From the NCBI GenBank assembly GCA_964593055.1, contig CAZQIG010000006.1:28668-92667 (forward strand): a DNA stretch of 64,000 nucleotides. The letters run 5' to 3'. The notes below the pieces were generated by a model. It saw nothing but the letters and a program-made list of their open reading frames with translations, was not told the DNA's origin and did not search any database. Source of the DNA: an uncultured Erysipelotrichia bacterium. Lineage in GTDB: Bacteria > Bacillota_I > Bacilli_A > JBKEDG01. The position numbers and the translations under genes are program-made. Shown piece by piece: positions 25,324 to 58,180 of this stretch (the first letter of the stretch is position 1; each line of letters opens with the position of its first letter).

Positions 25324-26067
25324 ATGATGATTGAACAATATCTCAAAAGAGAGCAGAAAAGATACTCTTTAATAAAAAAGGCTAGAATAATTATAGTTAT
25401 TCTGGTCTTTTTCATCTTTTTAGTTATAATCTATCTTAGGTTTGAAACTAGTGAAAAACATACCATATTTTTAGAATATGCAGGTGTAGAAGAAAAACTT
25501 AAATGTGATGAGGGTGTCTATCTAGAAAAATGCTTAATAGATAAAAATATTGAGAAATATGATTTATTATTTATTAATAATAAAGAAGCTACATATGATG
25601 AATTTATTTATTATCAATCAGAGGATACAATTAATGTTAAAGTCATAAAAGTAGATAAAGTATATGATTTTGAAACTGAGGTTATTAAGTTTCAAATTGA
25701 GGAGAAAAAAGATAATACATTGATGGAGGGAGAGACTAAACTAGATATAAAAGGAATAGACGGTGAGAAATTATTAATATATCAAGTAATTTATCATAAC
25801 GGTATATTATATGAAAAGGTTCAAATTAAGGAAAAAATAACTAATCCAACTAATCAAGTAGTTTTAGTAGGTACAAAAGTAGTTTCGACCACAAATAGTA
25901 TAAATGCTAGTGAAGTTAAAAGAAATGATTATAAAGCTAATAGTAAAAAATCAAATAGTGAATCAGATGAAAAAATAGACAATCCATCAAATACTATTCA
26001 TCAAGAAGAAACAATAGAAGAGAAGTGTACTATTACTATCAATGGTAAAGAATATGACTGTGATTGA
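25324..26067 (+). CDS. Membrane-anchored G5-domain protein
   Basis: An N-terminal TM helix and a G5-like block (LDIKGIDGEKLLIYQVIYHNGILYEKVQIKEKITNPTNQVVLVGTK). Confidence 0.4.
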   Translation: MMIEQYLKREQKRYSLIKKARIIIVILVFFIFLVIIYLRFETSEKHTIFLEYAGVEEKLKCDEGVYLEKCLIDKNIEKYDLLFINNKEATYDEFIYYQSEDTINVKVIKVDKVYDFETEVIKFQIEEKKDNTLMEGETKLDIKGIDGEKLLIYQVIYHNGILYEKVQIKEKITNPTNQVVLVGTKVVSTTNSINASEVKRNDYKANSKKSNSESDEKIDNPSNTIHQEETIEEKCTITINGKEYDCD

Positions 26068-26184
26068 ATTAAAAAGATAGATTAGAAATATTGTAAAAAA
26101 GTCAGCTTAATAATTTAAATGTATTTTACACTACCTATTATTATGATAAAATTGTATTATAAAGAACTTAAAGGGGAAATGATA

Positions 26185-27381
26185 ATGAACATTTTAAAAA
26201 AAATATTGATTGTTGGAAATGGATATGACCTTTGGTGTGGAATGAAAACAAGTTATGGAGATTATAAAGAATGGTTAGAGAACTATTTATATCAAAATAG
26301 TACTTATATTACCAATACTATTGTTAGAATTGCAGTAGATGAAGGGATATCTAGGGAAGTTTTTAGTAATGATAAAAGTGCGCTTGAATATGGACATAGC
26401 TTAAGATTGGCAGATTTTAAAAATAGATCGATAGTAAGATTATACCTTAATAAAGATAATGAAAGTGAATGGATATCAGCACTATATTCTTACAGTGTAT
26501 CTTTCTTTAAGTGTGAAAATTCAGAATTTGACTCAAAAATGACAAGAATAAATAATGAATTAGGATATACAACAGGTAAATCGGAATTAAATATTTTGTT
26601 TTTTTATTTTATGTTATTTTCAAACATTTCTTCAAAATATGGGTATACAAATGAAAGTTGGGGTTGTTTAGAGAGTAGTTTGAATCATTTTTATAATGAT
26701 AGTGAATTTCAAGCTTTAAAAACGTTTAGTAGTATAAGTTCGTATATTATTATTAGTTTTAAGCTATTTAAACAACATTTTGTTACTTATTTTATTGAAA
26801 GAGCCATTGCTCAAAGCTCTATTCAAAATCTAAATAAAAGACGTCCACATAACCTTAAAAATATGAATGATTATGTAGTCGTAGATTTTAACTATACAAA
26901 TAGATGGGAATTGTTCACGGATAGTTATTTAAAGATTCATGGAACAATTAAAGATAACTCAAATATTGTTTTTGGTGCAAATTTGAATATTAATAAAAAG
27001 GTAGACACTTTAAAACTAGTTTTGGATAAAAAGTATCAAAAAATGTTTTTGAAAAGTTCGGAAGCTAGAAATGATTTCTTGAATAAAATTACTGAAATAT
27101 ATACGCTAGGATTTAGCTTTTCACAAAACGATGACTATTTTATTCATGGAATACTCCATGCCAATCCAGAAATTAAAATAAATATAATTGACTTTGAAAA
27201 TGGGTATGATGAATCTGAGGATAGATTTGTCATTAATCAATTACAAGGATTGTATAGATCACTATCAGCATATGAGCATGATAAAAAAATATTAGAATTA
27301 AAAATATATCGAGATGAAATAAAAATAATTTCGGAACAAAATTTTGATAGAATGTTAAGAGGGAAAGAAATGATTTTATAA
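26185..27381 (+). CDS. AbiH-like abortive-infection family protein
   Basis: The N-terminus LIVGNGYDLWCGMKTSYGDYKEWL matches the AbiH N-terminal signature (IIGNGFDL..GL.TSY.dF). The start was moved to the ATG of MNILKK, which has better RBS spacing. Confidence 0.4.
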   Translation: MNILKKILIVGNGYDLWCGMKTSYGDYKEWLENYLYQNSTYITNTIVRIAVDEGISREVFSNDKSALEYGHSLRLADFKNRSIVRLYLNKDNESEWISALYSYSVSFFKCENSEFDSKMTRINNELGYTTGKSELNILFFYFMLFSNISSKYGYTNESWGCLESSLNHFYNDSEFQALKTFSSISSYIIISFKLFKQHFVTYFIERAIAQSSIQNLNKRRPHNLKNMNDYVVVDFNYTNRWELFTDSYLKIHGTIKDNSNIVFGANLNINKKVDTLKLVLDKKYQKMFLKSSEARNDFLNKITEIYTLGFSFSQNDDYFIHGILHANPEIKINIIDFENGYDESEDRFVINQLQGLYRSLSAYEHDKKILELKIYRDEIKIISEQNFDRMLRGKEMIL

Positions 27382-27409
27382 ATACAAAAAACTTTTGAGG
27401 GGGTTTAAT

Positions 27410-27919
27410 ATGAAAATATACTGTTGGTTTGATACGTCATTTGTAATAAATTTAATTACTATGAATGAAGAGCTATTTAAAAAATTTATTGATTTTTATA
27501 GCAATGATAGTTATGAAATAATAATATCAAGTATAGTAATAGATGAATTGAAAAGAAATAAGAAAAAGATTTTTTCCAAAAATTCAGAATATTTGAATTT
27601 AGATAGAGAAAAAAAAGCAATAACTTCGCTTACTGATAGTATGAAAAAAATAATAGTTCATTCTTGGCATTATGATACTGGAATTAGTGAAATATCATTT
27701 CGTGGACTAGTAATGAGCTTAGAAGATTGTGTAAGAATATGGAGTGAAAAAAATGATGTTCAATTGGATGAAAATCAAAAAAGTAATCAAAAAAACTATT
27801 ATGAATTTCTTAAATTTGTAAATGATTGTGTTTTGGAAATATCTGATTCTCAAAAAGTGAATTATTTTATAAAAGCACAAGCAAGATTAGAACTAAACAT
27901 ACCACCTGGTTATATATAA
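27410..27919 (+). CDS. PIN-like domain protein, possibly the N-terminal part of a frameshifted gene
   Basis: The D...E pattern MKIYCWFDTSFVIN...IIISSIVIDEL is PIN-like. The next ORF opens in another frame exactly where this one stops. Confidence 0.3.
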   Translation: MKIYCWFDTSFVINLITMNEELFKKFIDFYSNDSYEIIISSIVIDELKRNKKKIFSKNSEYLNLDREKKAITSLTDSMKKIIVHSWHYDTGISEISFRGLVMSLEDCVRIWSEKNDVQLDENQKSNQKNYYEFLKFVNDCVLEISDSQKVNYFIKAQARLELNIPPGYI

Positions 27920-27986
27920 AGATAGATCAAAGAAAACTGATACAAAGTATAATGATATAATAATATGGTTACAACTTATTGATTAT

Positions 27987-28529
27987 ATGAAAAACAAGGC
28001 TTGTTCTAAATTACTTATATTTACTAATGATATTAAAGATAAAGACGAAGAAAGACAAGTAAAAGAGCTTAGAGAAATTTCAAAATATAATAATGAAGTT
28101 ACATTTTATGATTCCAATACTGGTTACGAATCCATTTTAGGTGAATTAAAAGTGCCTAAATCTATTTGGGAAAAAATAAATCATGGTACTAGAGAAAACA
28201 TTGATAAAGAGATTTCTTCTGAAAAGGGGAGTATACTATATGATAAAATTTCTTATTCAGGTATTATGTTAGAGGAAGTTTTTTTTGAAGAAGAAAAAGA
28301 AGAAGGATATAATTTTCGATTTATGTCAAGTGCAGACATTGAAATAACATATGTAACAAAACTAAGGTATTATTATAAGTATACTACTGATTACTCTGAA
28401 TGTGGTAGCGGTTATATAAATGAAATTTTTAAGCTTAAATTTATTTATAATCGTGTTGAAGAAGTATATGTACTTTTAGATAAAGAAATTGATTTTAAAA
28501 TAGAGGAAGATAATAGTAATTTGAACTGA
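27987..28529 (+). CDS. Hypothetical protein, possibly the C-terminal part of the PIN-like gene
   Basis: Its frame is open from 27923, directly after the stop of the previous ORF. Confidence 0.3.
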   Translation: MKNKACSKLLIFTNDIKDKDEERQVKELREISKYNNEVTFYDSNTGYESILGELKVPKSIWEKINHGTRENIDKEISSEKGSILYDKISYSGIMLEEVFFEEEKEEGYNFRFMSSADIEITYVTKLRYYYKYTTDYSECGSGYINEIFKLKFIYNRVEEVYVLLDKEIDFKIEEDNSNLN

Positions 28530-28583
28530 TTATCTAAGTCAAATACAAAAAAGTTTATATGGAATAGATAGAAAGGAGTTTTA

Positions 28584-30632
28584 ATGTTAAGAATATTACT
28601 AAAAGATGATTACAAAACGGATGTAAGGAACTATAAATTGTTCTTAAATCAAATTCGAGCATTATTTGATAAAAGTTTTGTATCGATGTTTAAGAAGAAA
28701 ACAATTATCACCTATGTGATTAATTGTAATAAAGATAATGAAATAGAATTTTATTTTGATGTTAATAATGAGGATAAGAAAGAGTATTTAAAAGGGTTTT
28801 TAAAAACTCTTTTTTTTGATACAGAAATTATTGATGTTGATTTTAAAGATGAGTTTAGATATAGTAATGCTATTTCAAAATATAAATATGCTAAAGAATA
28901 TCAGTTATTAGATTTTGATCACACTTTGACAAAATATATTTTGAATAGTATGAGTAAGAACACAGCAATTGTTTTAAAGTATTATGTTGACCAGGATGAT
29001 AGTTATTTTTTGAGTGTTAATGTTGCAACTGATTATGAAGAGAGTTTGCAAGGTATTAAAAATATCTGTAGTACTGTTCAACAGACGACTGCTGCTGATG
29101 AAAGTGTTAGAGGCAAGAAGATAAAGTTATATGTTAAATATAATAGTCATAAAAATAATTATATGAAGTTAAGTGTTGAGGAAATACTTAACTTTTTATT
29201 TATACCTTATGATATGAAAAAGATTGCTACAATTGATAAGTATCAAATAATTTCTACAAATGAGCAAGGAATAGTTGTTGGAAGATCATTGCATCCATTA
29301 TCAAAAGATAAAGAGTTCAAAATACCTTTTGAAGTTATGCGAAAGCATGGTTTTTTATCTGGTCAAACAGGTAGTGGTAAGAGTTCTCTATTTGAAATGA
29401 TAGTTAAATCCGTTATTCAATGTAAGAGTGATGGAACTAATGTAGGATTTACTTTATATGACCCTAAAGGTGCATCATGTGTAGGAGTAGTCAATGCTAT
29501 TGAATATTTTTGTAATAAGGGACTTATTAAGAATAGAAATGAGTTTTATAAGAAAGTTCGTTATATTGATTTGAATTTGAAAAATACTTTGTTTTCAATT
29601 AATTTAATTGATAAGTCAACAGATGTAACTTTTTTAATTGATTTTTTTAGAAATGTATTTAATTCTAGTGGTGTAAGATTAGAAAGATACATTACTTCAG
29701 CAGTTGGCTTATTACATGCTGATGAAGATATTCATTATGTTGATGATATTTTAAAGTTATTTGATGATGAAGAATATCGAAGAAAAATAGTTCATAGAAA
29801 TTTAAACAAACCACATGCTAAGAGATTTATTACTGTTTTTCGTGATGTTAGCTTTAAAGAAGAAGAAATTGCACCAATTAGAAATAGATTAGAACCTTTT
29901 ATGAATACTTATAAAAAGGAATTGATGTTTAATTCTGGCCATGATTTACATGAAGTTAGAAAATGGATGGATGAAGGGTACATTGTTATTTTTAATTTAA
30001 ATGGATTTTCTAAAAATGAGATTGAATTGATTATAGGTTATATTACATTACAATATCATTTAAAGGCTAAAAAGCGACCTAATGGTGCTAATAGTCATTA
30101 TATGTTTATAGAAGAGGCTCACAATGTTCAATTAGATATAACTGAAAAGATTATTGCTGAAGATCGTAGTCAAGGTTTACATATTTTCCCAATGACTCAA
30201 TTTTTAGAACAGTATAAGAAAAATCTATTAGAATCGATTACTGGAAATGTTGCTAGTAAGATTGTTTTACAACAAGGTAATAGTAGTAGTTCTCGTGCAG
30301 GTGCAATTGTTGGAGTAAAAGCTAATATTTTGGAAAATATGAAAAAATTTCACGCCTATGTAGTAAGTGAGAATGATGAAGGTGAAGTTGTAACTTCATA
30401 TGTGAAAATAGATCCTCCGTATCGTTATGATAAAAAAGGGAATATTCTAGATTATGATATTTCTGATAAAAAGAAGATGTTTGAGATTCAAAAACGAGAG
30501 GAAGAATTGCTATTAATTTTAAAAGATAATATGCGAAAAAATTATCCAATGAAAAATGTAGTAGTAAATAATGATTCTGTTTCAAATATAATAAATCTTG
30601 ATAATGATATTTTTGTAAAGGATGGTGATTAA
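28584..30632 (+). CDS. FtsK/VirD4-like P-loop ATPase (candidate type IV coupling protein)
   Basis: Walker A GQTGSGKS and Walker B-like FIEEAH are present. It sits next to the putative relaxase. No N-terminal TM helix is obvious, so a HerA/TraC-like role is an alternative. Confidence 0.45.
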   Translation: MLRILLKDDYKTDVRNYKLFLNQIRALFDKSFVSMFKKKTIITYVINCNKDNEIEFYFDVNNEDKKEYLKGFLKTLFFDTEIIDVDFKDEFRYSNAISKYKYAKEYQLLDFDHTLTKYILNSMSKNTAIVLKYYVDQDDSYFLSVNVATDYEESLQGIKNICSTVQQTTAADESVRGKKIKLYVKYNSHKNNYMKLSVEEILNFLFIPYDMKKIATIDKYQIISTNEQGIVVGRSLHPLSKDKEFKIPFEVMRKHGFLSGQTGSGKSSLFEMIVKSVIQCKSDGTNVGFTLYDPKGASCVGVVNAIEYFCNKGLIKNRNEFYKKVRYIDLNLKNTLFSINLIDKSTDVTFLIDFFRNVFNSSGVRLERYITSAVGLLHADEDIHYVDDILKLFDDEEYRRKIVHRNLNKPHAKRFITVFRDVSFKEEEIAPIRNRLEPFMNTYKKELMFNSGHDLHEVRKWMDEGYIVIFNLNGFSKNEIELIIGYITLQYHLKAKKRPNGANSHYMFIEEAHNVQLDITEKIIAEDRSQGLHIFPMTQFLEQYKKNLLESITGNVASKIVLQQGNSSSSRAGAIVGVKANILENMKKFHAYVVSENDEGEVVTSYVKIDPPYRYDKKGNILDYDISDKKKMFEIQKREEELLLILKDNMRKNYPMKNVVVNNDSVSNIINLDNDIFVKDGD

Positions 30633-31488
30633 AATGGATATTAGGAATGTACCTATTATCTCAAATAGAGATAAACTGCTTTTTGAATATCTGAACGTTT
30701 TTAAATTATTAGATATCAATTTTGTGAAAAAACATATTTACAATCATCGTTCACAAACATATGTGTACTCCAGGATCAAACAATTAGAGTATCATGGTTA
30801 TATTAAATCAATTATATTATTTGAATTGAATAGTAGTAAAAATAATACTAATCAAAAGAAGATTATCTTTAATTCAAAGAATGCCGAAGAATTTTTAGAG
30901 TTTCACCTCTTTCATACAAATAAGGTTAATAATATTAGTAATCAAATTATTAATCACCAATTATTTTTAGCACATTCTTTAGTTTATTTTTATGATGAAG
31001 AGATTAGTGTTGCTAGTAATACTAATGTTCAAGTAGAAAGATTAGTTAGTGAAAATGAATTATCTTTAGCAAGAAAGGATTATTTAAGACCAGATGGGGG
31101 AGTTATTTTTTCCATCAATGATCAAAATATTTTAGTATTTGTAGAAGCAGAAAGAAGTTATGCTAAATTATCGGATGTTAGTAGGAAATTAGTTGATCAA
31201 TATGGAAATATTTTCAAGTATGCTAGTAAACTTAAAGTAGTTGAAGAAGAAGATATAAAAGCTTTAAGAATTATGTTTGTTAGTGAAAATAGAAATAAGA
31301 TGATGAATATTATTGAGAAAACAAATAATGTTATGAAAAGAAGAAAAGATTTTAGTTTAAGTAAAAACATTATTTTTACTTGTACTGAAGACATTGAAAA
31401 AATTATGAGAACTAATGGTAAAATATTATCGTTGTTATACTATACATTAAGTGGTTATCAAGTTAAGATCTATGAACCGATTGATTAA
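30622..31488 (+). CDS. Replication-relaxation (Replic_Relax) family protein, putative relaxase
   Basis: The N-terminal winged-helix block (ISNRDKLLFEYLNVFKLLDINFVKKHIY...YVYSRIKQLEYHGYI) is typical of Replic_Relax proteins. It is coupled to the ATPase gene. Confidence 0.4.
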   Translation: MVIKMDIRNVPIISNRDKLLFEYLNVFKLLDINFVKKHIYNHRSQTYVYSRIKQLEYHGYIKSIILFELNSSKNNTNQKKIIFNSKNAEEFLEFHLFHTNKVNNISNQIINHQLFLAHSLVYFYDEEISVASNTNVQVERLVSENELSLARKDYLRPDGGVIFSINDQNILVFVEAERSYAKLSDVSRKLVDQYGNIFKYASKLKVVEEEDIKALRIMFVSENRNKMMNIIEKTNNVMKRRKDFSLSKNIIFTCTEDIEKIMRTNGKILSLLYYTLSGYQVKIYEPID

Positions 31489-31685
31489 AATATAGGGGTG
31501 TAATTCAAGTAATAATTCGTGTATCTTTTCAAAGAAATGTAAAAGTAACTGAATTACACCTCAAAGATTAATAATAAATACTACTATATAACATTTTAAA
31601 TATTAAGATAATATCAAAAAAAACTTATTCATTCATTTATAAAATAACAACCTTTGTCTTTATCTTCTAAATTATTGAATAAGCA

Positions 31686-31757
31686 GTAACTAAATAACTA
31701 TACACGCATTAGTTACAAAATGGTTACAATGTAACTAAAATGTATTTATAATGTAAC
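31686..31757. repeat. GTAAC repeat cluster (candidate oriT or operator)
   Basis: GTAACTAA at 31686 pairs with TTAGTTAC at 31709 as an inverted repeat. GTTACAaTGTAAC at 31723 is a palindrome. AATGTAAC is repeated at 31750. Confidence 0.3.
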
Positions 31758-31871
31758 GAGGAAGATTTTGATTAAGTTTGCTGAATTAGTAAGTATTGTT
31801 CTAAGATATAAAAATATGTTATTATAAATGTATACAATGCGCTTATAAAATTAATAGTAGGGGGAATTCTA

Positions 31872-33338
31872 GTGGATGAAATGATTAATAGTGTAATGAT
31901 TTATAAAATTTGCGGAAGAGATTTAAACGATATTGAGGATATTTTACGTCGAGACAACTACGAAAAAACAGATTATGAATTCAATATCGAGGGTAATGAT
32001 TTATATATTTATCAAAAGCATATTACTCAACAAAATGATTATGCATTACCTTTTTTAAGTAATAATGTTAGTATTAAAAGGTATGTTTATATTATTTTGA
32101 TTCCAGATTTAGATAATGATAAAAACTTCTACTGGTTTAGAAGAGGGAGTGATAGGTCAAGGATAGATAGTTTTAAAAATAGCAATTTTGCATTTCATTA
32201 TCTTGCAAACTGTAGAGATCATGGAGAATATAATGTAGTAAGTAGTGGCAAAATAGAGTTTTCAACATTTTCGGGAGAATCTAGAACTTCTATTATCAAA
32301 GATAAAGATATGACTAAATTAAGTGATATTAAAAGTGAATTAAATACGTATAAAGAAAGTATAGATGATTTAGTATTGAAGGTGAAAAAAAATTCACAAA
32401 TATATGATGACTTGTGTATGGATAAAACTAGAGAAGTAAGAATTTCAAATGGAATAAAGGTCTATTTAGATATGAGTTCTGATGAATGTTTTAGAAAAGC
32501 TTTTAAAATCTGTAAAAATATTTCCAAGAGGCAAAGAAATGGTGAGAAAACAAACGTGTTTAGAAAAATTAGAAAATCAAATGTTGTTATTGATAGTGAA
32601 ATAAAGGTGATTAATTTGTTTGAACTCAAGAAATCGAGTGATTTAGATATAGAGTATGTTGAGAATTCTGCAAATATTTCAAGTGATAAAAATTATTTTG
32701 GTATTTTTTCAAAAGATGACATTTACTATTACATTAATATAAAGCAAGAAAAATATAAGATGGATTTTAATGAAGAAAAGCTTTCAGAAAAACTCAATAC
32801 GGAAGAGGAAAAAAGAATTTTAGAGTTGTTAAATGTGAATGAATACAAAAACGAAGCAGATTACATAGGTAAAATAAAAAATGTCAATAATGAGGATTGT
32901 TTGGTTCATGTTTTTCATCCTAAACACTATTGTCATACTAGCAAATCAAAATTTGAGTTGTGTGATGTATTATTATATGATAAGTCAAATGATAATTTAT
33001 ATTTAATTTTTATCAAGTATGAATTTTTAGCAAAAAGTTCTGAGGTTTTTTGGCAATCAACATTTGTCAAAGAATTTATATTAAAAGATAAACTAAGTCA
33101 AGATAAATTAGAGCGTTATTATGATAATGCTGGGTTTCGTTATTCTGATTATCGAAAAAAACTTTTTTTAGACAAAGCAAACTTTGTTAATATAATATTG
33201 CCTAGAGGTAACAACAGGAGTACAGATAATTTAGATCATGTCTATACATTAATTAAGCATATCGAAGGTAGAGAAAGACTTAAAATCATAGTTCCTGAGA
33301 CTACAAGTAATGGGAATAGCACAAGGATTGAAATTTAA
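31872..33338 (+). CDS. Hypothetical 488-aa protein
   Basis: A long ORF with a GGGGAA RBS. I recognise no motif. Confidence 0.4.
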   Translation: MDEMINSVMIYKICGRDLNDIEDILRRDNYEKTDYEFNIEGNDLYIYQKHITQQNDYALPFLSNNVSIKRYVYIILIPDLDNDKNFYWFRRGSDRSRIDSFKNSNFAFHYLANCRDHGEYNVVSSGKIEFSTFSGESRTSIIKDKDMTKLSDIKSELNTYKESIDDLVLKVKKNSQIYDDLCMDKTREVRISNGIKVYLDMSSDECFRKAFKICKNISKRQRNGEKTNVFRKIRKSNVVIDSEIKVINLFELKKSSDLDIEYVENSANISSDKNYFGIFSKDDIYYYINIKQEKYKMDFNEEKLSEKLNTEEEKRILELLNVNEYKNEADYIGKIKNVNNEDCLVHVFHPKHYCHTSKSKFELCDVLLYDKSNDNLYLIFIKYEFLAKSSEVFWQSTFVKEFILKDKLSQDKLERYYDNAGFRYSDYRKKLFLDKANFVNIILPRGNNRSTDNLDHVYTLIKHIEGRERLKIIVPETTSNGNSTRIEI

Positions 33339-33395
33339 GATAATTGCAACAATTTTTATTATTGAAACAAAAAATACTAATAAGGGGGAGTTAGA

Positions 33396-33818
33396 ATGAG
33401 AAAGAATATTCTTTTAGTTTTAATGTTTTTCATAACTATAAATTTGGTAGGATGCTTTAAATCAAATATTAAAGAAGAAGATGTAAAAAAAGAAATTGAG
33501 AATCAATTACAGCTAGAAAACATTGAATACGAATATAAAGAATTTGGTGATTTAAATTTCGAGTATTGGATTAGAGCATTTGCTGAGGAAAATGTTTCAT
33601 TAAGATATGAAGATTTTAATAGTGGTGGTTCATATGAAATGAATGAAGGAATTATATTTTATCTTGAAATAAATGATGATGATACACTAGCTCAAATGGA
33701 AGAAGCTTATTCTAAGTTTGAGTATGATCATCCAATGTGTTATAAAGATAGCTTTGCTGTTTATGTACAAGAGGGTGACTTCAGTAAATTAGTGGAAGAG
33801 TTATGTGATAATCTTTAA
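33396..33818 (+). CDS. Lipoprotein
   Basis: Signal peptide with the lipobox LVGC. Confidence 0.5.
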   Translation: MRKNILLVLMFFITINLVGCFKSNIKEEDVKKEIENQLQLENIEYEYKEFGDLNFEYWIRAFAEENVSLRYEDFNSGGSYEMNEGIIFYLEINDDDTLAQMEEAYSKFEYDHPMCYKDSFAVYVQEGDFSKLVEELCDNL

Positions 33819-33860
33819 AATAATACTTTTTAAGTAGCGATGATTTATATTTTAGAAAGT

Positions 33861-33887
33861 GTACTAGCGAAAGCTAGTACTTTTTTA
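33861..33887 (+). terminator. Intrinsic terminator
   Basis: GTACTAGC-gaaa-GCTAGTAC followed by TTTTTT. Confidence 0.5.
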
Positions 33888-34002
33888 TTGCAAAAATATA
33901 GCAATAAATTACCTAATCTTCTTTAGAAAACTTATAAATGTTAAACTATGTAAACTAATATATTGTACGAATATAAACATTATAGAAGTAAGAGGTGGAT
34001 TC

Positions 34003-35163
34003 ATGAAATTAAAAAAAGTTGCTGCATATGTAAGAGTATCAACAAATGAACAAGCTAAAAAAGGCTTTTCTATCGAAGGACAAAAAAGAGATATTGTTGA
34101 TTATTGTAATTATAAGCTTAAAGAGGGGTATAATATAGATTTTTTTGTAGATGAAGGAAAAAGTGCAAAAACTATGAATCGTAAGTCTTTAAAACAACTT
34201 ATGAATGAAGTTAATAATTATGATTATGTAGTTGCATGGAAAATTGATCGTATTGGTCGTGGAGTACTAAATAATGAAATATTTAGAAAAGAGGTTACTG
34301 GTAGAGGTGCTTGTTTATTGTTTGTATTAGACAATATTGATTTATCGACAGATTCAGGAGTTATGCAGTATCAAATTATATCAGCTGTAAGTGAAAATGA
34401 AATTGCAAACACAAGTACCAGGACAAAAATGGGATTGCTTCAAAAAGCACGTAAAGGTGAATATCCATATGGGAATAAGCCTCCAATTGGTTTTTCTAAA
34501 GATAAACATCATCGACTATATTACAATAATGAAATAGAAATAATTAGAGAACTTTATGACTTGTATGTTAACTACGGTTATAGTTTTGAGTTTATAGCCT
34601 ATTTATTTAGAGATAAGTATCCACAGTACAAGTGGGGGAAAAATTACCCTTGTGAATTATTGAAAAAAACAATTTATAGAGGATATTTAGAAGTGCAGGG
34701 AGAAAGGTTTGATTTGGTTGATCCTTTTTTTAGTGAAGAAGAAATTGAAAAACTAAAGTTTTTAGAAAATAGGAGTAGAGTTATAACTGATAACTTCTAT
34801 AAATATAAAGGTCTTATTTTTTATAAAAATCAAGAGATGTGTGCTTATACTAAAAATAAAAAAATGAAAGACGGCAAGATGAAAAAGTATGTTTATTATT
34901 ATGTTCGAATTAATGGTAAGAAAGTTATAAACATAGCTGAGAGTGTTATTGATAAAGAGGTATTTAAATATGAAAGAAGTGTTTTTCAAAGTAATATTGA
35001 TGCTAGACAAAAATTAATAAATAATTTAGAAATATTACTAAAACAAGGAAGGATTACCAATAAAAAGTATGATTATTTAGTGTCTCAAAAATCACATCGA
35101 CATTTTTCCATATCAAGAATAAATGTGATGGATAAAAATAGGATAATTATTGATTGGACTTAA
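34003..35163 (+). CDS. Large serine recombinase (integrase), a short 386-aa version
   Basis: The N-terminal resolvase catalytic domain has the AAYVRVSTNEQ nucleophile motif. A recombinase domain follows (YPYGNKPPIGF...KTIYRGY), with a degenerate zinc-ribbon region. Confidence 0.75.
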   Translation: MKLKKVAAYVRVSTNEQAKKGFSIEGQKRDIVDYCNYKLKEGYNIDFFVDEGKSAKTMNRKSLKQLMNEVNNYDYVVAWKIDRIGRGVLNNEIFRKEVTGRGACLLFVLDNIDLSTDSGVMQYQIISAVSENEIANTSTRTKMGLLQKARKGEYPYGNKPPIGFSKDKHHRLYYNNEIEIIRELYDLYVNYGYSFEFIAYLFRDKYPQYKWGKNYPCELLKKTIYRGYLEVQGERFDLVDPFFSEEEIEKLKFLENRSRVITDNFYKYKGLIFYKNQEMCAYTKNKKMKDGKMKKYVYYYVRINGKKVINIAESVIDKEVFKYERSVFQSNIDARQKLINNLEILLKQGRITNKKYDYLVSQKSHRHFSISRINVMDKNRIIIDWT

Positions 35164-35292
35164 CATATATTTATAATTTTATAAAAGTATTTAAAAACAG
35201 CTACACTTGGATATAGATAATTATTTTGATATAATATATTTGAGATGTATTGTAACTAATTGTAAAAAAGTTTTTTTAGAGGGGTGTTTTAA

Positions 35293-38200
35293 TTGAGTAT
35301 ATTTCATATAAAAGATTGCGTTATTGAAGATTTTGATTCAAAAGATTTTTTTAGTGGTAAAAAATATTCTAATACTTTGGCAAAAGCTATTGAAAATGAT
35401 GAAATAACATCAATTGCAGTATATGGTAAATGGGGAGTTGGAAAAACTACAATTGTAAGAAATGCATTAATTAATCAGAAAAAATATTCCGACAAGAATA
35501 TAGTTACTTATAATGCTTGGAAGTACAGTAAACATGATTTTATGCGTGATTTTTTGATTGAATGCTCAAAAAGAATTGAAGGTGAAGAAAAAGCAGCTAC
35601 TAGAGAAGAAAGATACTATTCTAATCAAGTAGATCAAATAGAAGCACAAAGCTTATTTGATAGTTCATTGGGAGTATGGATAAGAAAGAATTGGAAGTCC
35701 TTGAGTATATTTGTGGTTATTTATGTTATTGTAGTTGTTGCAACAATAGTAATTAATAACTATAAACCCAATTTGTATAGGGTTGGTGATATTCTTATTC
35801 CGCTAACAACAATTTTCTTTTCGTTGCTTATACCTGTCATAATCGCTAAGACAATTACTGTAAAAGCTGTGGATAAGATTTTTTCACCAGAACAATTTGA
35901 AAGACAGTTTAAAGAAATAATAGGTAAAAAAGAAGTCTTAATATTTATTGATGATATTGATAGATGTGAAGTAGACGATATGAAAACAACATTAGATACA
36001 ATTAAAACTTTTATTATTGATAATGAAAAACATAGTAGTAATGTAAAATTTATTATATCTATCGATCCAAATGTCATGTTGCCAAAATTAAAAAATACAT
36101 CAAGCGATTATTTTTTCAAAATATTTAATCATGTACTTTTAATAAAAAATTATGTAAATGTAGATTATGAAAAAATGAGAAAAGAAATTTTGAGTATGAT
36201 TAAGCAGTCAGAATATAAGTCGGTTGTTGATGATGGTTTAAAACTGGCGATTAATTATTATATTGATACACCTAGAAAATTAAAAATGTTTGCCAATGAG
36301 TTTATTAATGAGTTATATAATTATAAAATCGATGATATTAAAAGTTTTGGTGAATCATTCGCAAAAATTATTATTCTGAAAAATGAATATCCGGAGTTTT
36401 ACGATTGTTTATCAAAAAACTATAATAGAAATATAAAAAAAATGAATGACCAAATTGAAGATTATGAACGAGAAAGAAATCAAGAAGAGATATCCTTACC
36501 ATATTCTGAAGGGCTATTAAAATTTTTAAGTGAAACAAAAGATGTATCTTTGGAATGTTTTTCACTATACGCTTTAGGTATTAGTTATAGTCAATATATG
36601 CTTCAGGAATTTATTAAGAATCCAATCCCAAAAAATGCAATTGATAAGAAATCATCAGTTGATTTTGAATCAAACTTCTCTTTAATAAAAAAATCAATAA
36701 GAGATAATATAGTATACCCACTATCAGTTCGTAAGGAATATCAACCAGGGGATAGATTTACAAAGGTGATATTTTTATTGACAGAACTTGAAGATAAACT
36801 AAGTGAGGATAGTTTGAAATTGATTAAAGCGGAAATAATCAAAGTGTGGGATGAATTATTTAGAGATGAAAAATTGTTTCGTGAGATAGAAGATGATGAA
36901 GAATATTTTGAAGTTGTAGATTTTAGTTTTTTAAATGATACTATAAGAGAATATATGCTTAAACTTTTAGAAAAAAATTCTAATATTATTAATGATGCTA
37001 TTGTAAATAAGATATTAAGTTCTATTGATTCTTCAGAGAAAAAATCTATAGGATTTGATTTGAACTTCTTTTCATTTATTGATTTTTTTAAAAAACAAGA
37101 TGAACTTACTGAAAAAGCATTTATAAATATTATAAATAGTGCTATGAAAGATAACTTTGTGGTGTGTTTCAAACGCTTATCTTATTTATTTAGTAATGGA
37201 AATAAGTGTAATGAAAAGACATATGTGAAGAAGGTATTTGATAATTTAGGTGACGAAAAATTAGATGAAGAATATAAAAGTATTTCTACAAAATATATTG
37301 CAAATAGATATTCTGATGATAGGGGTCAAAATAATTTGATAATGGGATTAAACTCTATTTTTCCTCTTAAGGATGAAGATACTATTAACGAGTATATGTT
37401 TATTTTTGAGGTAATTGAGCGAATTATTCGTGTAAATACCTCAGATTATGAAAAAATAAAAGAATTAATATTAAATTTAATTGATTATTTTGATGTAGAC
37501 GAAACAATTGATAAATTGATTGTTAAAATACTTTTATCAGTAAAGTATTCGAAGAATTTTGATTCAAGTGATTATGAAGGTGTATTGAATCAAGTAGCTG
37601 ATAAATTTAATACTGCAAATTACGGAAGTGCTACTTTGAGCCGATACATTTCTCAATTAAATGAAGCAGAATTTAATAATTTTTTAAACTATAGTATAGA
37701 AGAGCACTATTATAATAATAGTAATATTATTTCTCAAAACAAAGGAATATTTGTTAATTTTCTAAAAGACAAAAATGTATTTTGTACATTAGCTAAGACT
37801 ATTGACAAAAATGAAGGTAGCATTACTTCTGATTTGATTGAAGATTATGGGTTTAGTTTAAAGTTTCATATTGATTCAATTAAATATTTAATAAGTACAG
37901 ATGTTGTTGGATACATTTATTTGCTTTCACCTTTTAGTTTTGGTGATATTAAGGATGTTAAATTAAACATTAGTGAAAATAATTATAATCAAATTGATTT
38001 TTCGCTCATAAAAGGCGATGCATTGTGGAAAAAAATAAAAGAAATTTACAAAAAGATTTCAGAAGAAATGTATAGTGATATCAAAGCCAATGAAGGTTCT
38101 GATATAAACATATTCCATGGATCTGTAAATAAATATATTGAATTTATAAAATTTTACTACAATAAACTGAATGTTGAAAATAAAAAAATTGATCACAGAT

Positions 38201-38382
38201 TATTATGGAAACATTTATTAGAAATTGAGGGAATTTATCGTATTAAAGGTGACATTAATCTGTATAAAAGGTATTTACAAGAAGACCAAGAATTTAGAAA
38301 TGTAATTAAAAATGGAAACTATAAAAAAAATCTAAATAAAAGTTCACTTAAAGAAACAATAAAATATTTAATTAATGATTAA
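35293..38382 (+). CDS. KAP-family P-loop NTPase (1029 aa)
   Basis: Walker A is IAVYGKWGVGKTT. Two TM helices are inserted in the P-loop domain, between the Walker A and Walker B motifs. The KAP signature FIDDIDRCE (DDxDRC) follows. Confidence 0.7.
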   Translation: MSIFHIKDCVIEDFDSKDFFSGKKYSNTLAKAIENDEITSIAVYGKWGVGKTTIVRNALINQKKYSDKNIVTYNAWKYSKHDFMRDFLIECSKRIEGEEKAATREERYYSNQVDQIEAQSLFDSSLGVWIRKNWKSLSIFVVIYVIVVVATIVINNYKPNLYRVGDILIPLTTIFFSLLIPVIIAKTITVKAVDKIFSPEQFERQFKEIIGKKEVLIFIDDIDRCEVDDMKTTLDTIKTFIIDNEKHSSNVKFIISIDPNVMLPKLKNTSSDYFFKIFNHVLLIKNYVNVDYEKMRKEILSMIKQSEYKSVVDDGLKLAINYYIDTPRKLKMFANEFINELYNYKIDDIKSFGESFAKIIILKNEYPEFYDCLSKNYNRNIKKMNDQIEDYERERNQEEISLPYSEGLLKFLSETKDVSLECFSLYALGISYSQYMLQEFIKNPIPKNAIDKKSSVDFESNFSLIKKSIRDNIVYPLSVRKEYQPGDRFTKVIFLLTELEDKLSEDSLKLIKAEIIKVWDELFRDEKLFREIEDDEEYFEVVDFSFLNDTIREYMLKLLEKNSNIINDAIVNKILSSIDSSEKKSIGFDLNFFSFIDFFKKQDELTEKAFINIINSAMKDNFVVCFKRLSYLFSNGNKCNEKTYVKKVFDNLGDEKLDEEYKSISTKYIANRYSDDRGQNNLIMGLNSIFPLKDEDTINEYMFIFEVIERIIRVNTSDYEKIKELILNLIDYFDVDETIDKLIVKILLSVKYSKNFDSSDYEGVLNQVADKFNTANYGSATLSRYISQLNEAEFNNFLNYSIEEHYYNNSNIISQNKGIFVNFLKDKNVFCTLAKTIDKNEGSITSDLIEDYGFSLKFHIDSIKYLISTDVVGYIYLLSPFSFGDIKDVKLNISENNYNQIDFSLIKGDALWKKIKEIYKKISEEMYSDIKANEGSDINIFHGSVNKYIEFIKFYYNKLNVENKKIDHRLLWKHLLEIEGIYRIKGDINLYKRYLQEDQEFRNVIKNGNYKKNLNKSSLKETIKYLIND

Positions 38383-38449
38383 TGAATTTTTAGACTAAAG
38401 AGGTATAATAACAGGTATAAAATAATTTTTCAAATTTCTATTTGTTATT

Positions 38450-38461
38450 AAAAAGTTCGAC
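38450..38461. repeat. AAAAAGTTCGAC half-site, recurring about 100 nt upstream of each small-RNA promoter
   Basis: Full palindromes of the same word occur at 45049..45076 and 56502..56530. A half-site occurs at 51155..51168. Confidence 0.3.
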
Positions 38462-38530
38462 ACTTAAATTTAATTAATAGAATATATTTATTGTTGAAAT
38501 AGCTAAATTATAACTACTTATATAAAAAAC

Positions 38531-38665
38531 TTGCAATAGTTTTCGGGATATGATATCATCAAGTTAATGAATAACACGTCAAGCGTGTCTATTTATTAAA
38601 AAATCCACAATACGCTACCAGTTTGCCTATCTATAGTTCGTAGTTAGTCAACGTGACTGGTACCA
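38531..38665 (+). ncRNA. Copy A of the conserved promoter plus structured small RNA / leader; its 3' terminator is replaced by the inserted element
   Basis: TTGCAA, then 17 nt, then TATCAT, then ATG exactly 8 nt later (MNNTSSVSIY, then stop). A hairpin ACACG/CGTGT follows, then CCAGT...ACTGG around an inner 7-bp stem, ending ...ACTGGTACCA at 38665. Confidence 0.45.
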
Positions 38666-38906
38666 TTTATTTTTGAACTAGCCCCAATAATTGGAGAAAA
38701 GTTCAAACATAATTAAATTATAATCAGGTAAGTTGTAAACAACTCAATCCTGTCAACGGAGGCTTCACCGCCCTCGTCAGTTGGGACGCCAGAGCCGAAG
38801 ACTGGCCGACCCAAGGTCAAAGTGGATTTTTTAATAAAGGTGATAGACACGAGAATGTTATTCTCGTGTCTTTTTGCGTTCATTAATAATTTAGGAGGGT
38901 GAATAA
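38666..38906 (+). promoter_or_regulatory. Second copy of the 241-bp leader (identical to 9758..9998), including the attenuator terminator at 38846..38876
   Basis: The copy is base-for-base identical by eye. The spacing to the downstream start codon (241 nt) is also identical. Confidence 0.5.
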
Positions 38907-39785
38907 ATGAATTATAGAGCCAAAGATAAAAATAATATCTTCATCGAATTTAAACATATGCTAGATTATGAATTATCTGAAGATATTATTAAAGCAAGAA
39001 TTTTTCATAGCAATTTAGGTAATCAAAAATCAACAATCGATGCTAAGTTAAGAAAATATCAATTGATTGATAAATTAAATAGACGACAAGCTGTTAATAA
39101 TCGAAGTGCTTATGTCTTTGATGTAATGTTACCGAGAAACTATTTGATAAATAAAAACATTGGTAAGTTAAAAAACTATATTACTGAACTTGTAAATGAT
39201 TTTAAAAATGATCATAACTTAAAATACTACGCTTACTTTATTAAAATAGGTAAAGCACGAATTTTAAGAATTGTTATTTTAAATAGAATAATCGATTTTT
39301 CTACTTTAAAGTTTTATGAAAAAGATGGAAAATTAATCTATGATAAACAGATTGTCTATATTAGTAATAAAATAAGGATTCCACATTTTGCAACTAGAAC
39401 AAAGGGTTCAAAAGAAATTTTTCAAGCAACAATTGAAGAATATAAACTATTACTCATTCGCATATTAACGATAAAAGTCATTCAAGTAAATGACTCTATC
39501 AAAAAGGTGAGCTACAAAACATGCATAAGAACGCATGAAGGATACACGCATCTACTAATGACACATACTTACTATAATCACCTCAAAAAACGGAAAATTA
39601 AGGCTATAAATACATATATAGGCGTCATAAACGAGTATTTAATATTCAATCAAAATAATTCAAAAGCAATCATTTCTAAAGCTAGAGACAAAATCAAGTT
39701 TTACAAAAGTTTCAAGGTGAAAGACTTGCTACCTTTAGAACAAGAAATAATCAACGAAATTAGCTTAATAAAGGGAAAAATATAA
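38907..39785 (+). CDS. Second copy of the 292-aa initiator-like protein; the C-terminal third has diverged
   Basis: It matches 9999..10877 through about residue 195 (DFIKK versus DSIKK) and diverges after that. Confidence 0.3.
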   Translation: MNYRAKDKNNIFIEFKHMLDYELSEDIIKARIFHSNLGNQKSTIDAKLRKYQLIDKLNRRQAVNNRSAYVFDVMLPRNYLINKNIGKLKNYITELVNDFKNDHNLKYYAYFIKIGKARILRIVILNRIIDFSTLKFYEKDGKLIYDKQIVYISNKIRIPHFATRTKGSKEIFQATIEEYKLLLIRILTIKVIQVNDSIKKVSYKTCIRTHEGYTHLLMTHTYYNHLKKRKIKAINTYIGVINEYLIFNQNNSKAIISKARDKIKFYKSFKVKDLLPLEQEIINEISLIKGKI

Positions 39786-45150: not shown

Positions 45151-45343
45151 TTGCGAAATGATTGAAAGTATGTTAGTATGTGATTAATGAATAACACGCT
45201 TAGCGTGTCTATTTATTAAAAAATCCACAATCTGCCAGTTTGCCTATCTATAGTTCGTAGTTAGTCAACGTGACTGGTACCATAATTGAATGAAATGGCC
45301 CCAAAAGTTGGAAATAATATTCTAGCTTTTGGGGATTTTTATT
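45151..45343 (+). ncRNA. Copy B of the conserved promoter plus structured small RNA, with its own intrinsic terminator
   Basis: TTGCGA, then 17 nt, then TAGTAT, then ATG 8 nt downstream (MNNTLSVSIY, then stop). Hairpin ACACGC/GCGTGT follows. CCAGT...ACTGG encloses TTGCCTA...TAGTCAA, ending ...GGTACCA at 45282. The terminator GGCCCCAAAAG...CTTTTGGGGATTTTTATT is at 45297..45343. Confidence 0.5.
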
Positions 45344-51256: not shown

Positions 51257-51466
51257 TTGCTGTAGCAAAATAAGTGTGTTAGTATGTTAGTAATGAATAG
51301 CACGCAAGACGTGTCTATTTATTAACATTTCATCAACACACTACCAGTTTGACCATCTATAGTTCCACCGTGGTCAACGTGACTGGTACCATAATTGTTT
51401 AAAGAATCTCCAAAAGTAAGTGATGGTATATTTATATATATCATGCTAACTTTTGGAGATTTTATA
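51257..51466 (+). ncRNA. Copy C of the conserved promoter plus structured small RNA, with terminator
   Basis: TTGCTG, then 17 nt, then TAGTAT, then ATG 8 nt downstream (MNSTQDVSIY, then stop). The hairpin GCACG/CGTGT has a different loop. CCAGT...ACTGG encloses a perfect TTGACCA/TGGTCAA stem, compensatory relative to copy B. It ends ...GGTACCA at 51391. The terminator ATCTCCAAAAGT...ACTTTTGGAGATTTTAT is at 51405..51466. Confidence 0.5.
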
Positions 51467-56602: not shown

Positions 56603-56675
56603 TTGCATGCGTATTTTGAAAATGTTATTATGTGATTGATGAATAACACGTTAAGAGTGTCTATTTATTAAAAAT
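56603..56675 (+). ncRNA. Copy D of the conserved promoter plus 5' part of the small RNA, with a divergent 3' half
   Basis: TTGCAT, then 17 nt, then TATTAT, then ATG 8 nt downstream (MNNTLRVSIY, then stop). Only the first hairpin and the A-run are conserved. Confidence 0.4.
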
Positions 56676-57007
56676 ACGTCATTTACAGTAGTTGATAACC
56701 GATTAGGACTTAAAGGTTGTTAAATTGAAAGATAAAAACTATTGCAACGGACAGTTGAACAAAAATTGTATAGAACTGTATGTAACTAATTATTATAAAT
56801 AAAATATATTGCAAAGTTTAAAAGAGTGCTAGTAAGATAAGAACTAGCACTCTTTTTGTTTGCAATAATATAACAGTAATTTAGTGATTCGTTAAATAAT
56901 GTTAAGAAAATGTATAATAGAAAATGCAGGGATTTAGTTACTATATTTTGTATTAAAAAAAATTAAAACTAATTTTTAAATATATCGCACATAAGGGGTG
57001 GTTTAAC

Positions 57008-58180
57008 TTGAAGAAAGATAGTAAAAAGATTTATGGATATATACGTGCATCTACAGAAGATCAAAAAAAGCATGGATATAGTGCTGAGGAACAAAAACGT
57101 AAAATAAAAGGCTATTGTGAATTACACTATGATAGTTATGAGCTAATCATAATTGATGATTCAGGATACTCTGCGTGGAAGAAGAACGTAAATAGACCAG
57201 GAATGACAAAAGTGATGAAAGAGGTAGATGAAATTGATATTTTTATCTTTTATGACATTGATAGGTTTTCAAGATAAATTTTAGATGGTCTAACTTTTTT
57301 TACAAAACTTCAATCAGCTAATGTTAAGATAATTTCATTAGTAGAAGAATTGAATTTAGATACAGCAGATGGAATGGCATTTGCACAGATTAAACTTGTG
57401 CTTTCACAATATAAATCATCCAAGATATCAGAAAAAACTAGATTTGGACTTTTAGGAAAAGCAAAAAAAGGTCAGTACCCCTTTGGTAACAAACCACTCA
57501 TAGGTATTTCAAAGGACGAGAATGATATCTTATATTATGATGATGAAATTCATATTGTACGTGAAATTTATGAGTTGTATGTTAATTGCGAATATAGTTC
57601 TGAATTCATAGCGTACTTATTTAGAGAAAAATATCCGCAGTATAGTTGAGGAAAGAACTATCCACTTGTATTGCTTAGAAAAACTATTTATAGAGGCTAT
57701 ATTATGATTTCTGATGAAAAAATTTATTTAATTGAGCCAATATTTAGTGAGGAAGAAATTGAAAATTTAAAAAGTATTCAAAATAATGAAAGGTTTATTA
57801 CGAACAATAACTATAAGTATAAAGTCAATGTTTATTATAAAAACAAAAAGATGCATGTATATTCAAAAAGTAAAAAAATGAGTAATGGTAAAATAAAGAA
57901 TTATGCATATTATTATGCACGTGAAAATGGAGAGAAGATATTGAATATACCTGAGAGCAAAATCGACAAAGAAGTTTTAAAACATCAAGTCATAGCAAAA
58001 CGTAAAAATATTGAAGAAAGATTGAAAACCCTAAATCATGCTGATAAGTTATTGAAACAAGGAAAGATAACAAAAGAAAAGTATGCCTATATTGCGAAGA
58101 TCAATTCTAAAAATAAAAATAGCACAATGAAAATAATTGTTAAAAGCAAAGATTTGATAGTTATAGAAGAAAATCAGTGA
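57008..58180 (+). pseudogene. Serine recombinase pseudogene in three frame fragments, paralogue of 34003..35163
   Basis: The first fragment has IYGYIRASTEDQ. Fragments 2 and 3 align with the intact recombinase (KAKKGQYPFGNKPLIGISKD... and KTIYRGY...KNYAYYYAREN). There is an in-frame stop at 57278 and a stop/frameshift near 57650. Confidence 0.6.

Follow-up and report, generated by a model that had tools for sequence, protein, structure and literature searches.

The question raised by the locus studied here is why one promoter, together with the structured RNA that would follow it, recurs along a single stretch of bacterial DNA. The stretch, referred to as the window, comprises 64,000 nt of contig CAZQIG010000006.1 (positions 28,668 to 92,667 of the forward strand) from an uncultured Erysipelotrichia bacterium (assembly GCA_964593055.1), which belongs to an extremely poorly sampled lineage with a genome of about 26% GC. 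An earlier note, made from the sequence alone, had described four copies of the promoter-plus-RNA unit, termed module in the following, and had proposed a cis-acting leader or attenuator, or else a small RNA (sRNA). Five copies are now recognized, A to D within the window and E just past its end, and they are the right ends of integrated elements that have been tandemly accreted at a tRNA-Leu gene. The general class proposed for the module was right, while its context, that is, element right ends in a tandem array, had been missed. The module is best read, with a probability of roughly 0.6, as the outward-reading right-end unit of integrative elements at tRNA-Leu and as part of a zipper-type attenuator that would be split by the attachment (att) site. 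Comparison with sister strains is based on three highly fragmented assemblies (GCA_019826105.1, GCA_019826165.1, and GCA_019826185.1) and a few runs of the Sequence Read Archive.

Right ends of elements accreted at tRNA-Leu

The array starts at a tRNA-Leu(UAG) gene (9674..9757, + strand; Rfam tRNA model, 55.8 bits, in agreement with ARAGORN). The 3' end of this gene reads ...CACCCGTACCA, and the array is bounded on the left by the final six bases, GTACCA (9752-9757), which form the attL core. Copy A (38531-38665, + strand) ends with ...GACTGGTACCA. From GTACCA onward, the two loci are 100% identical over 300 nt (9752-10051 and 38660-38959), with a period of 28,908 nt. Because of this identity, the UACCA that had been taken for the end of the RNA is instead the recombination core of an integrative conjugative element (ICE), at a junction whose core GTACCA is common to the 3' end of tRNA-Leu. 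The direct-repeat period and matches to Pfam and PHROG families define E1, a putative ICE of 28,908 bp (9758..38665, + strand), of which module A is the right end. E1 is coded almost wholly on the + strand and carries genes for ParA/ParB, G5 and SpaA surface proteins (SpaA adhesin), a VirB4-like ATPase with about 22% identity to Bacillus plasmid ATPases, an M23 peptidase, and a HerA/FtsK-like ATPase; there is also a weak match to "replication initiation by nicking". A serine integrase of 386 amino acids is encoded at 34003..35163 (+ strand; PF00239, E = 2.9e-29; phrog_95 "integrase", E = 9e-53, residues 2-345). E1 is found at the same tRNA in three other assemblies. To the right of copy A, the left end of a second element, E2 (38666..38821, + strand), is identical to that of E1 (9758-9913) and comprises a P' arm hairpin and a GC-rich structured leader domain. 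Homology between the left ends of E1 and E2 extends over 1.74 kb and includes an open reading frame (ORF) for a 292-amino acid protein, which is the first gene of E2 (38907..39785, + strand) and is 92% identical at the protein level to the E1 copy (9999-10877). The 292-amino acid protein has no sequence match in the PDB, and its AlphaFold model has a pLDDT of 46.7.

The four copies within the window do lie where the earlier note had placed them, and their relatedness is far above chance. The 15-mer GTGTCTATTTATTAA occurs exactly four times and the 17-mer CAACGTGACTGGTACCA three times versus 0.02 expected, and pairwise BLAST between the copies gives E-values of 1e-15 to 1e-41. A covariance model of the module finds no further copy in the window and detects copy E in the sister-strain contig L028 (13645-13778, 63.5 bits). 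The extents of three copies had to be redrawn. Copy B (45151..45282, + strand) ends at 45282, the remainder up to 45343 belonging to a terminator; copy C (51257..51391, + strand) ends at 51391, with a terminator up to about 51466; and copy D covers 56603..56680 (+ strand). Copy B is the right end of the decayed E2 (core GTACCA at 45277-45282) and is followed by the left end, or P' arm, of E3 (45283..45343, + strand; terminator 45299-45334). Copy C is the right end of E3 (core at 51386-51391) and is followed by the left end of E4 (51392..51466, + strand; terminator approximately 51403-51463). Downstream of copy D, a paralogous serine-integrase pseudogene (57008..58180, + strand) is found, which is 46% identical to the E1 integrase and contains the in-frame stops TAA (57275) and TGA (57647, in place of a Trp codon).

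Junctions A, B, and C are built alike, with a P arm, GTACCA, and then mutually homologous P' arms. This also concerns the terminators behind B and C, which had been considered independent and non-homologous; the 5' arm of one, GGCCCCAAAAGTTGGA, can be aligned with that of the other, ATCTCCAAAAGTAAG, and both with GCCCCAATAATTGGAG, which is found after copy A as well as after the tRNA. Since these P'-arm terminators are placed just where the attB flank has the native tRNA terminator, the tRNA and the module RNA are always each left with a terminator after recombination. Nor is the module the head of a cassette of secreted-protein and ABC-transporter genes, as had been suggested; it is the right end of the preceding element, and between it and the first ORF, B and C have a strong terminator and 250-440 nt in which other promoter-like sites occur.

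The distal end of the array lies outside the window. Copy E (L028 13645-13815, about 2 kb past the window end, corresponding to a window position of about 66.1 kb) consists of TTGCTA-17-TATCAT, the first hairpin of the module, the outer stem of the second hairpin, and the end ...GACTGGTACCA, and its linker is yet another allele. It is directly followed by a native-type tRNA terminator, and the sequence after it, AAAACGACAAAAAACGGCTTTATTTAGCCGTTTTT..., matches the flank of a relic tRNA-Leu 3' end at 84% identity across about 190 nt. This relic, CCCTTCACCCGTACTA with a second tRNA downstream flank (L028 16398-16600), is located 2.6 kb past E, which implies that another small island, or else an old duplicate of the tRNA locus, lies in between. 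The terminator stems of the two flank copies differ by compensatory changes. Because the sequence after E matches the flank of the relic tRNA-Leu, E together with the core and the native tRNA flank is the attR of the whole array, which spans about 56 kb.

Summarizing, an intact tRNA stands at one boundary, an att-derived repeat is present at the internal junctions, and the native flank is found distally; integrase and transfer genes are present in one member, and the others are decayed. The number and positions of the modules follow from each copy being the right end of an array element. A 28.5-kb contig with both ends in the gene of the 292-amino acid protein fits a tandem or a circular form. 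Tandem accretion is known for ICEs, integrative mobilizable elements, and cis-mobilizable elements of the ICESt1/ICESt3 type (PMC5704250) and for the ssrA islands of Dehalococcoides with serine recombinases (PMC3146451). As in those arrays, one functional and several decayed elements are located downstream of a stable-RNA gene with one att-derived repeat per junction, and a serine recombinase is present as in the ssrA islands. In the known arrays, however, the repeat is a copy of the target-gene 3' end of at least 20 bp, whereas here only GTACCA is common to the tRNA, and the repeated unit is the element's own promoter-plus-RNA module of more than 200 bp.

Promoter, predicted RNA, and complementarity to the leader

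Around 80-100 nt before each -35 hexamer, and nowhere else in the window, a terminator hairpin GTCGAAC-TTTTT-GTTCGAC is found. It is complete at B (45051-45074, + strand) and D (56505-56528, + strand), while half-sized relics with the half motif AAAAGTTCGAC are present at A (38451..38461, + strand) and C (51157-51167, + strand). Because this hairpin accompanies each module, the module is more than 200 bp long. The promoter has the layout TTGC-17-TGnTAnnAT. When the five copies are aligned on the predicted +1, the -35 TTGC, the TG at -15/-14, and the -10 TAnnAT are invariant, while the spacer is fixed in length at 17 nt and free in sequence, with 48% identity between the copies. This pattern bears out the promoter with a 17-nt spacer that had been noted before, transcription itself being predicted. 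The promoter is located at 38531..38559 in A (TTGCAA, 17-nt spacer, TG-n-TATCAT), at 45151-45179 in B, at 51257-51285 in C, and at 56603-56631 in D, in all cases on the + strand; the tRNA-Leu promoter is of the same kind (TTGCAT-17-TGATATAAT).

Hairpin 1 is a 32-nt stem-loop that begins 7 nt past the -10, i.e., at the expected +1. Its stem, AAUGAAUAACACG/CGUGU(C)UAUUUAUU, has 13-14 bp and is longer than described originally, while the variable loop and the conserved arms were described correctly, the arms being 92-95% identical and the loop 40%. The computed stability ranges from -7.4 to -11.1 kcal/mol across the copies. On the + strand, hairpin 1 occupies 38566..38597 in A, where it starts at the predicted +1 (-9.7 kcal/mol), 45186-45217 in B, 51292-51323 in C, and 56638-56669 in D. 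Hairpin 2 is found in A, B, C, and E and consists of an outer stem of 8 bp, U(A/G)CCAGU(U/C)/GACUGGUA, a 3' bulge, and an inner stem, followed by CCA. In A it extends over 38616..38665 (+ strand; outer stem 38616-38623/38655-38662, then the 3' CCA), with the GTACCA at 38660-38665 being the core of the E1/E2 junction; in B and C, it is located at 45233-45279 and 51342-51388 (+ strand). The earlier description of hairpin 2 does not extend to D, which has in common with the other copies only the promoter, hairpin 1, and an A-rich tract; hairpin 2 is missing there or unrecognisable. Compared with shuffled sequences, the copies fold with z-scores of about -3.5 to -4.2, and of -6 to -8 with their terminators, and in all of them the + strand folds better than the - strand. 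A terminator follows 12-19 nt after the core in B, C, and E and about 140 nt after the module in D; as predicted from these positions, the RNAs of B, C, and E would be about 140-175 nt long, and with D included the range would be about 140-225 nt; none of them would have a partner in cis.

Compensatory base changes within the module had been taken as evidence of selection on RNA structure. They amount to one double change (U-A to C-G) and one mismatch repair between A/B and C, and the observed value is reached by 182 of 500 shuffles with the three distinct full-length sequences, which is not significant. In copy E, hairpin 1 and the outer hairpin-2 stem are retained, whereas the inner sequence is unrelated and unalignable by the model. 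Over all copies, five of the six substitutions at stem positions keep pairing on the + strand via G-U or a new G-C, which is suggestive only. Structural covariation in the module is too weak to carry a claim for RNA structure. At its end, hairpin 2 has a 7-8-bp stem and then A-CCA; B and E carry G1-U72 and C2-G71, which are also found in the acceptor end of tRNA-Leu. This likeness is a lead only. The module was also considered as a degenerate copy of tRNA-Leu or a tRNA-like gene, and this was rejected; it has no similarity to tRNA-Leu and is not recognised by tRNA models, ARAGORN reporting tRNA-Leu alone and the Rfam tRNA model at E<=10 nothing in 38400-57000. That the module belongs to no known Rfam family agrees with a search of Rfam 15, at gathering thresholds and at E<=10, in which it is unmatched and the tRNA is the sole match.

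A stronger signal than the covariation within the module is its long-range pairing with the leader of the gene for the 292-amino acid protein, which follows copy A across the junction. Directly before this gene, the leader contains an intrinsic terminator with a 12-bp stem (38845-38871; identical copy 9937-9963) and a T-run, followed by AGGAGGG and the ATG at 38907. A leader tract, GTGGATTTTTTAATAAA-GGTGA-TAGACACG (38822..38876, + strand; identical copy 9914-9968), overlaps this terminator together with its T-run. The 3' arm of hairpin 1 and the adjoining A-tract of copy A, CGTGTCTA-TTTATTAAAAAATCCAC (38584..38608, + strand), are complementary to the leader at 38822-38851; this allele is called type 1 and is also present in copy B (45204-45228, + strand). 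In the minimum free energy (MFE) structure of module A plus leader, UUUAUUAAAAAAUCCAC (38592-38608) pairs 17/17 with GUGGAUUUUUUAAUAAA (38822-38838) and closes a central domain, a match with an E-value of about 5e-4. Past a 5-nt bulge, CGUGUCUA of the hairpin-1 3' arm pairs with UAGACACG, which is the 5' arm of the terminator (8 nt). Duplexes of A or B with the leader, calculated with RNAduplex, reach -38 to -40 kcal/mol (z = -7 to -8), and none of 300 shuffles is as good.

In the sister strains, the leader differs from that of the window in only one patch of about 20 nt, in which GTGGAT is changed to GACGTA. The resulting type-2 leader (strains 165 and 185) is complementary, again 17/17, to the tract TTTATTAAAAATACGTC of copy D (56664-56680, + strand), a copy whose 3' domain is unrelated to that of the other modules and whose terminator lies at 56823-56857. 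Cognate module/leader pairs have duplex energies of -28 to -31 kcal/mol versus -14.5 to -19 kcal/mol for non-cognate ones, and it is observed that the two allelic pairs, types 1 and 2, co-vary. A hairpin in the leader patch carries two compensatory pairs between the strains (GACC/GGTC to GTGC/GCAC). For the corresponding alleles of C and E, no partner is present in any available sequence. Ahead of the distant homologue of the 292-amino acid gene (34%, SRR13488699), GATTTTTT..AATAAGGT and the terminator are kept, and the contig ends there. Riboswitch-type alternative pairing of the module with the terminators of B, C, or D was considered as well and rejected, the complementarity having z-scores of about 0. 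Between the att junction and the leader terminator there is a GC-rich domain of about 95 nt (38728-38821, identical to 9820-9913; L003 14725-14820; L006 1-120), which includes the small hairpin with the two compensatory pairs, has no Rfam match, and could be a separate structured RNA, an origin of transfer (oriT), or a single-strand origin (sso).

The material available for comparison is narrow. The integrase, the 292-amino acid protein, and the housekeeping proteins M17 peptidase and DinB have no close relatives in a collection of 5.8 billion proteins. Protein searches with the integrase, the 292-amino acid protein, and its profile return only near-identical strain copies and the one 34% homologue on a contig of 1.6 kb. 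Copy B matched nothing by BLASTN in plasmid and phage collections, and exact-pattern scans for the 5' and 3' motifs in genome, viral, and metagenome collections gave only chance matches in GC-rich or unrelated DNA. The protein and DNA collections searched contain essentially no homologue of the element, of its integrase, or of its first gene, and by contig comparison every module copy in the other strains is 100% identical to its window counterpart. The evidence base is for these reasons five paralogous copies and two leader alleles.

A candidate attenuator and its alternatives

According to the preferred reading, the elements would use GTACCA at the tRNA-Leu 3' end as their insertion site, their own serine integrase being the most likely enzyme. 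The module would be an outward-facing transcription unit with a relic upstream terminator and a sigma-A promoter with extended -10. Its RNA would comprise, in this order, the 32-nt 5' stem-loop from +1, an A-rich linker, and hairpin 2, the 3' strand of which, together with CCA, is the crossover site. Because the promoter faces outward and the crossover site is inside hairpin 2, transcripts would cross the junction into the right-hand DNA. At copy A, and in circularised E1, this right-hand DNA would be the leader of the element's first gene. An attenuator of four regions can be envisaged, namely the hairpin-1 5' arm (region 1), the hairpin-1 3' arm with the A-tract (region 2), the leader tract with the terminator 5' arm (region 3), and the terminator 3' arm (region 4), in which the att core separates region 2 from region 3. 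When an element is integrated singly, its leader would be fed by the tRNA-Leu promoter only and, because such read-through would not contain region 2, the terminator should insulate the element genes. After circularisation or in tandem, the module promoter would supply region 2 in cis, and read-through may follow.

This scenario combines features of known systems. Conjugation operons of the pLS20 family possess the zipper-type attenuator cATT, in which the 3' strand of a weak, highly conserved upstream stem-loop pairs with the terminator's 5' strand (Gonzalez-Alvarez et al., NAR 2026, PMC13401043). Compared by layout, the site here is likewise located in a 5' leader, that of the first gene in a long conjugation-type operon, with an intrinsic terminator directly before the Shine-Dalgarno (SD) sequence. 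It likewise has a weak upstream stem-loop (-7 to -11 kcal/mol here, -6.4 in pLS20), which is the most conserved part of the leader and whose 3' strand is complementary to the terminator 5' strand and its flank, and its two predicted conformations may be of similar computed energy. Unlike in pLS20, the complementary halves are 213 nt apart with the att core between them, several hairpins occupy the centre instead of the one long imperfect stem (ext-SL-3) that nucleates the zipper, and the 17-bp helix misses the terminator, with only the 8-nt extension overlapping it. ConAn1, which in conAn processive antitermination systems is the product of the first gene behind the leader, and ConAn2 are not present here, the ConAn1 domain (PF17362) not being found in the 292-, 173-, and 157-amino acid proteins or the other E1 proteins scanned, and the host is an integrative element, not a plasmid.

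In Tn916, a left-end insulator terminator, T1, and a cis antiterminator, canT, which acts after circularisation, have been described experimentally (Wirachman & Grossman 2024, PMC11658703). Similarly, the left-end terminator here would shield from host read-through, in this case from the tRNA-Leu promoter, the right-end promoter would cross the joint only after circularisation, and an element-encoded cis RNA would be needed to pass the terminator; the layout of a left-end terminator and a right-end promoter across the joint is seen at the sequence level only. While canT, a region of 452 nt, lies far from the joint and acts on any terminator in a processive manner, sequence-specific pairing with one terminator is proposed here; moreover, Tn916 uses a tyrosine integrase and no tRNA target. 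A further comparison concerns the countertranscript-driven attenuation of rep genes of pT181 and pIP501/pAMbeta1, where antisense RNAs from the same locus induce termination. A leader terminator directly before the first gene, RNA-RNA pairing that decides on termination, and allele-specific patches would be common to both cases, but the partner here lies on the sense strand, either upstream or in trans, and would work against termination.

Accretion arrays, zipper attenuators, and Tn916-type insulation are already known in kind; what appears to be new is an attenuator split by a serine-integrase att site, the location of this site at the 3' end of an element-encoded RNA, and allelic pairing patches. 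If the preferred reading is true, an RNA attenuator whose two halves flank a recombination site would be a compact way to silence transfer and replication genes behind a host tRNA promoter until excision or tandem joining. The findings on Tn916 T1/canT (2024) and on the zipper attenuator of pLS20 (2025-26) would be extended to an ICE with a serine integrase from a lineage of 26% GC, and the natural allelic pairs, types 1 and 2, would make the pairing directly testable by swaps. A tentative and rather doubtful extension is an "excision-sensing" split riboregulator. In it, the attP of an ICE would lie inside an attenuator, at the 3' end of a promoter-driven, structured RNA that is encoded by the element and has a tRNA-like stem-A-CCA end, and would so mirror attB at the tRNA-Leu 3' end; the antiterminator strand of the right end and the terminator of the left end would share one transcript only when the element ends are joined, a 6-7-nt patch would confer element specificity (alleles of types 1 and 2, with further ones in C and E), and orphan copies would act in trans. 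Whatever the mechanism, the apparent four-copy riboswitch-like family becomes a map of a 56-kb accretion array with its att sites located.

Several observations weigh against the split attenuator. The MFE structure (-97.1 kcal/mol) retains the 12-bp terminator beside the 17-bp helix, and a further conformation with the terminator formed has -95.9 kcal/mol, compared with -91.7 kcal/mol for the full antiterminator; since the computed energies favour the terminator, any antitermination effect would have to be kinetic or factor-assisted. The central 213 nt fold into about five separate hairpins in a multiloop and not into one long stem as in pLS20. An empty attB is not present in any assembly examined, and a circular junction is likewise not seen in them. 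B, C, and D are complementary to their own downstream regions only at z-scores of about 0, and together with E they have no cis partner. Strain 165 has a type-1 module A followed by a type-2 leader, and the leader beside the tRNA in strain 185 is of type 2; because of these arrangements, the matching of alleles in cis is not always kept, and the allele distribution fits a trans-acting sRNA at least as well as a role in cis. The complementarity between module and leader can equally be a subterminal inverted repeat at the DNA level. Finally, there are just five paralogous copies from one lineage, those of other strains being identical.

The allele distribution leads to the unlikely alternative that B, C, D, and E, and possibly A after processing, are free trans-acting sRNAs of about 140-225 nt that pair allele-specifically with the leader of the first gene and modulate termination or stability, resulting in cross-talk or immunity between the relics and the active element. 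B, C, D, and E are each equipped with a promoter and, downstream, a terminator, the orphan copies retain an invariant promoter and invariant hairpin-1 arms, and in every genome examined each leader allele has a perfectly matching module allele even if the cis module is mismatched, with cognate and non-cognate duplexes separated by about 10-12 kcal/mol. On the other hand, no target for the alleles of C and E exists in the available sequences, hairpin 1 sequesters half of the pairing tract, and positive regulation from decayed relics has no obvious logic. More unlikely again is a purely DNA-level feature, composed of an attP P-arm with accessory, oriT, or regulator sites, where the complementarity would be a protein-bound subterminal inverted repeat and the promoter and hairpins would be incidental or secondary. 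The hairpin-2 3' strand as crossover site and the palindromic TGGTACCA agree with such a feature, as does the location of the inverted repeat, which lies inward of the two E1 ends by 51-93 bp and 157-200 bp. Also, the hairpin-1 arms are conserved as sequence and do not co-vary, and because all pairs of the complementarity are Watson-Crick, it cannot tell RNA from DNA. But the conservation reaches more than 200 bp from the core, far past the size of serine-integrase att sites; the promoter hexamers are kept with a free spacer, and hairpin 1 starts exactly at +1. Furthermore, the left repeat is a canonical intrinsic terminator directly before the SD sequence, the spacing of the sub-motifs is unequal (0 versus 5 nt, with ACACG/CGTGT half-sites 5 versus 13 nt apart), and the pairing-preserving stem substitutions on the + strand, five of six, involve G-U.

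A promoter-proximal, structured module with terminators right behind it also recalls processive antiterminator RNAs of the put, EAR, or canT type, by which RNA polymerase would be modified in cis to pass the immediate and the internal operon terminators. Several internal + strand terminators are predicted in E1 (15702-15723, 18866-18885, 19179-19208, 25375-25412, and 33861-33880), which would leave room for a processive component, and canT of Tn916 is a precedent; yet the module is not like any Rfam antiterminator, PF17362 is not found in the E1 proteins scanned, and the allele-specific complementarity to the leader is left unexplained, so that we consider this mechanism quite improbable. Very little speaks now for the ligand- or signal-sensing leader or attenuator of the downstream secreted-protein/ABC cassettes considered in the earlier note, for which the location upstream of cassettes and the terminators after B and C could be adduced. 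Apart from the module belonging to the preceding element and from the distance to the first ORF, the cassettes differ while the module remains the same, copy A precedes a different type of gene, and the alternative pairing between terminator and module has z-scores of about 0. Scarcely credible, at last, is a leaderless mini-ORF of 10 codons, MNNTxxVSIY*, with its AUG at +2 and its UAA at the end of hairpin 1, as a leader peptide. It is intact and of constant length in all five copies, but the hairpin explains the constant length equally well; there is no SD sequence, the AUG is buried in the 13-14-bp stem, and the codon differences, which are located in the hairpin loop (codons 5-6), are all non-synonymous.

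Other genes carried by the array

On E1, defence-type cargo is encoded at 26119-30632 and 35293-38382, including AbiH, a PIN-domain protein, a HerA/DUF87 ATPase, and a KAP-family NTPase of 1029 amino acids. Three cargo cassettes, at 41159-44920, 45781-51084, and 51712-56465, encode small secreted or uncharacterised proteins (DUF2712, DUF6365, and a C92-type amidase), and each of them also contains genes for an ABC ATPase and for multi-pass membrane proteins. The cassettes could represent export modules or bacteriocin/immunity-like ones. Two short ORFs (40832-41005, - strand; 58309-58407, + strand), which by eye are like transposase fragments of insertion sequence (IS) families, are located where the homology of the decayed elements to E1 ends. 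A cluster resembling those for ribosomally synthesized and post-translationally modified peptides (58606-63596) encodes three radical-SAM/SPASM enzymes and a methyltransferase, with ABC transporter genes following it in L028; a candidate precursor of 51 amino acids (62213-62368) has the C-terminus SGGTSHCSGTSTSVY.

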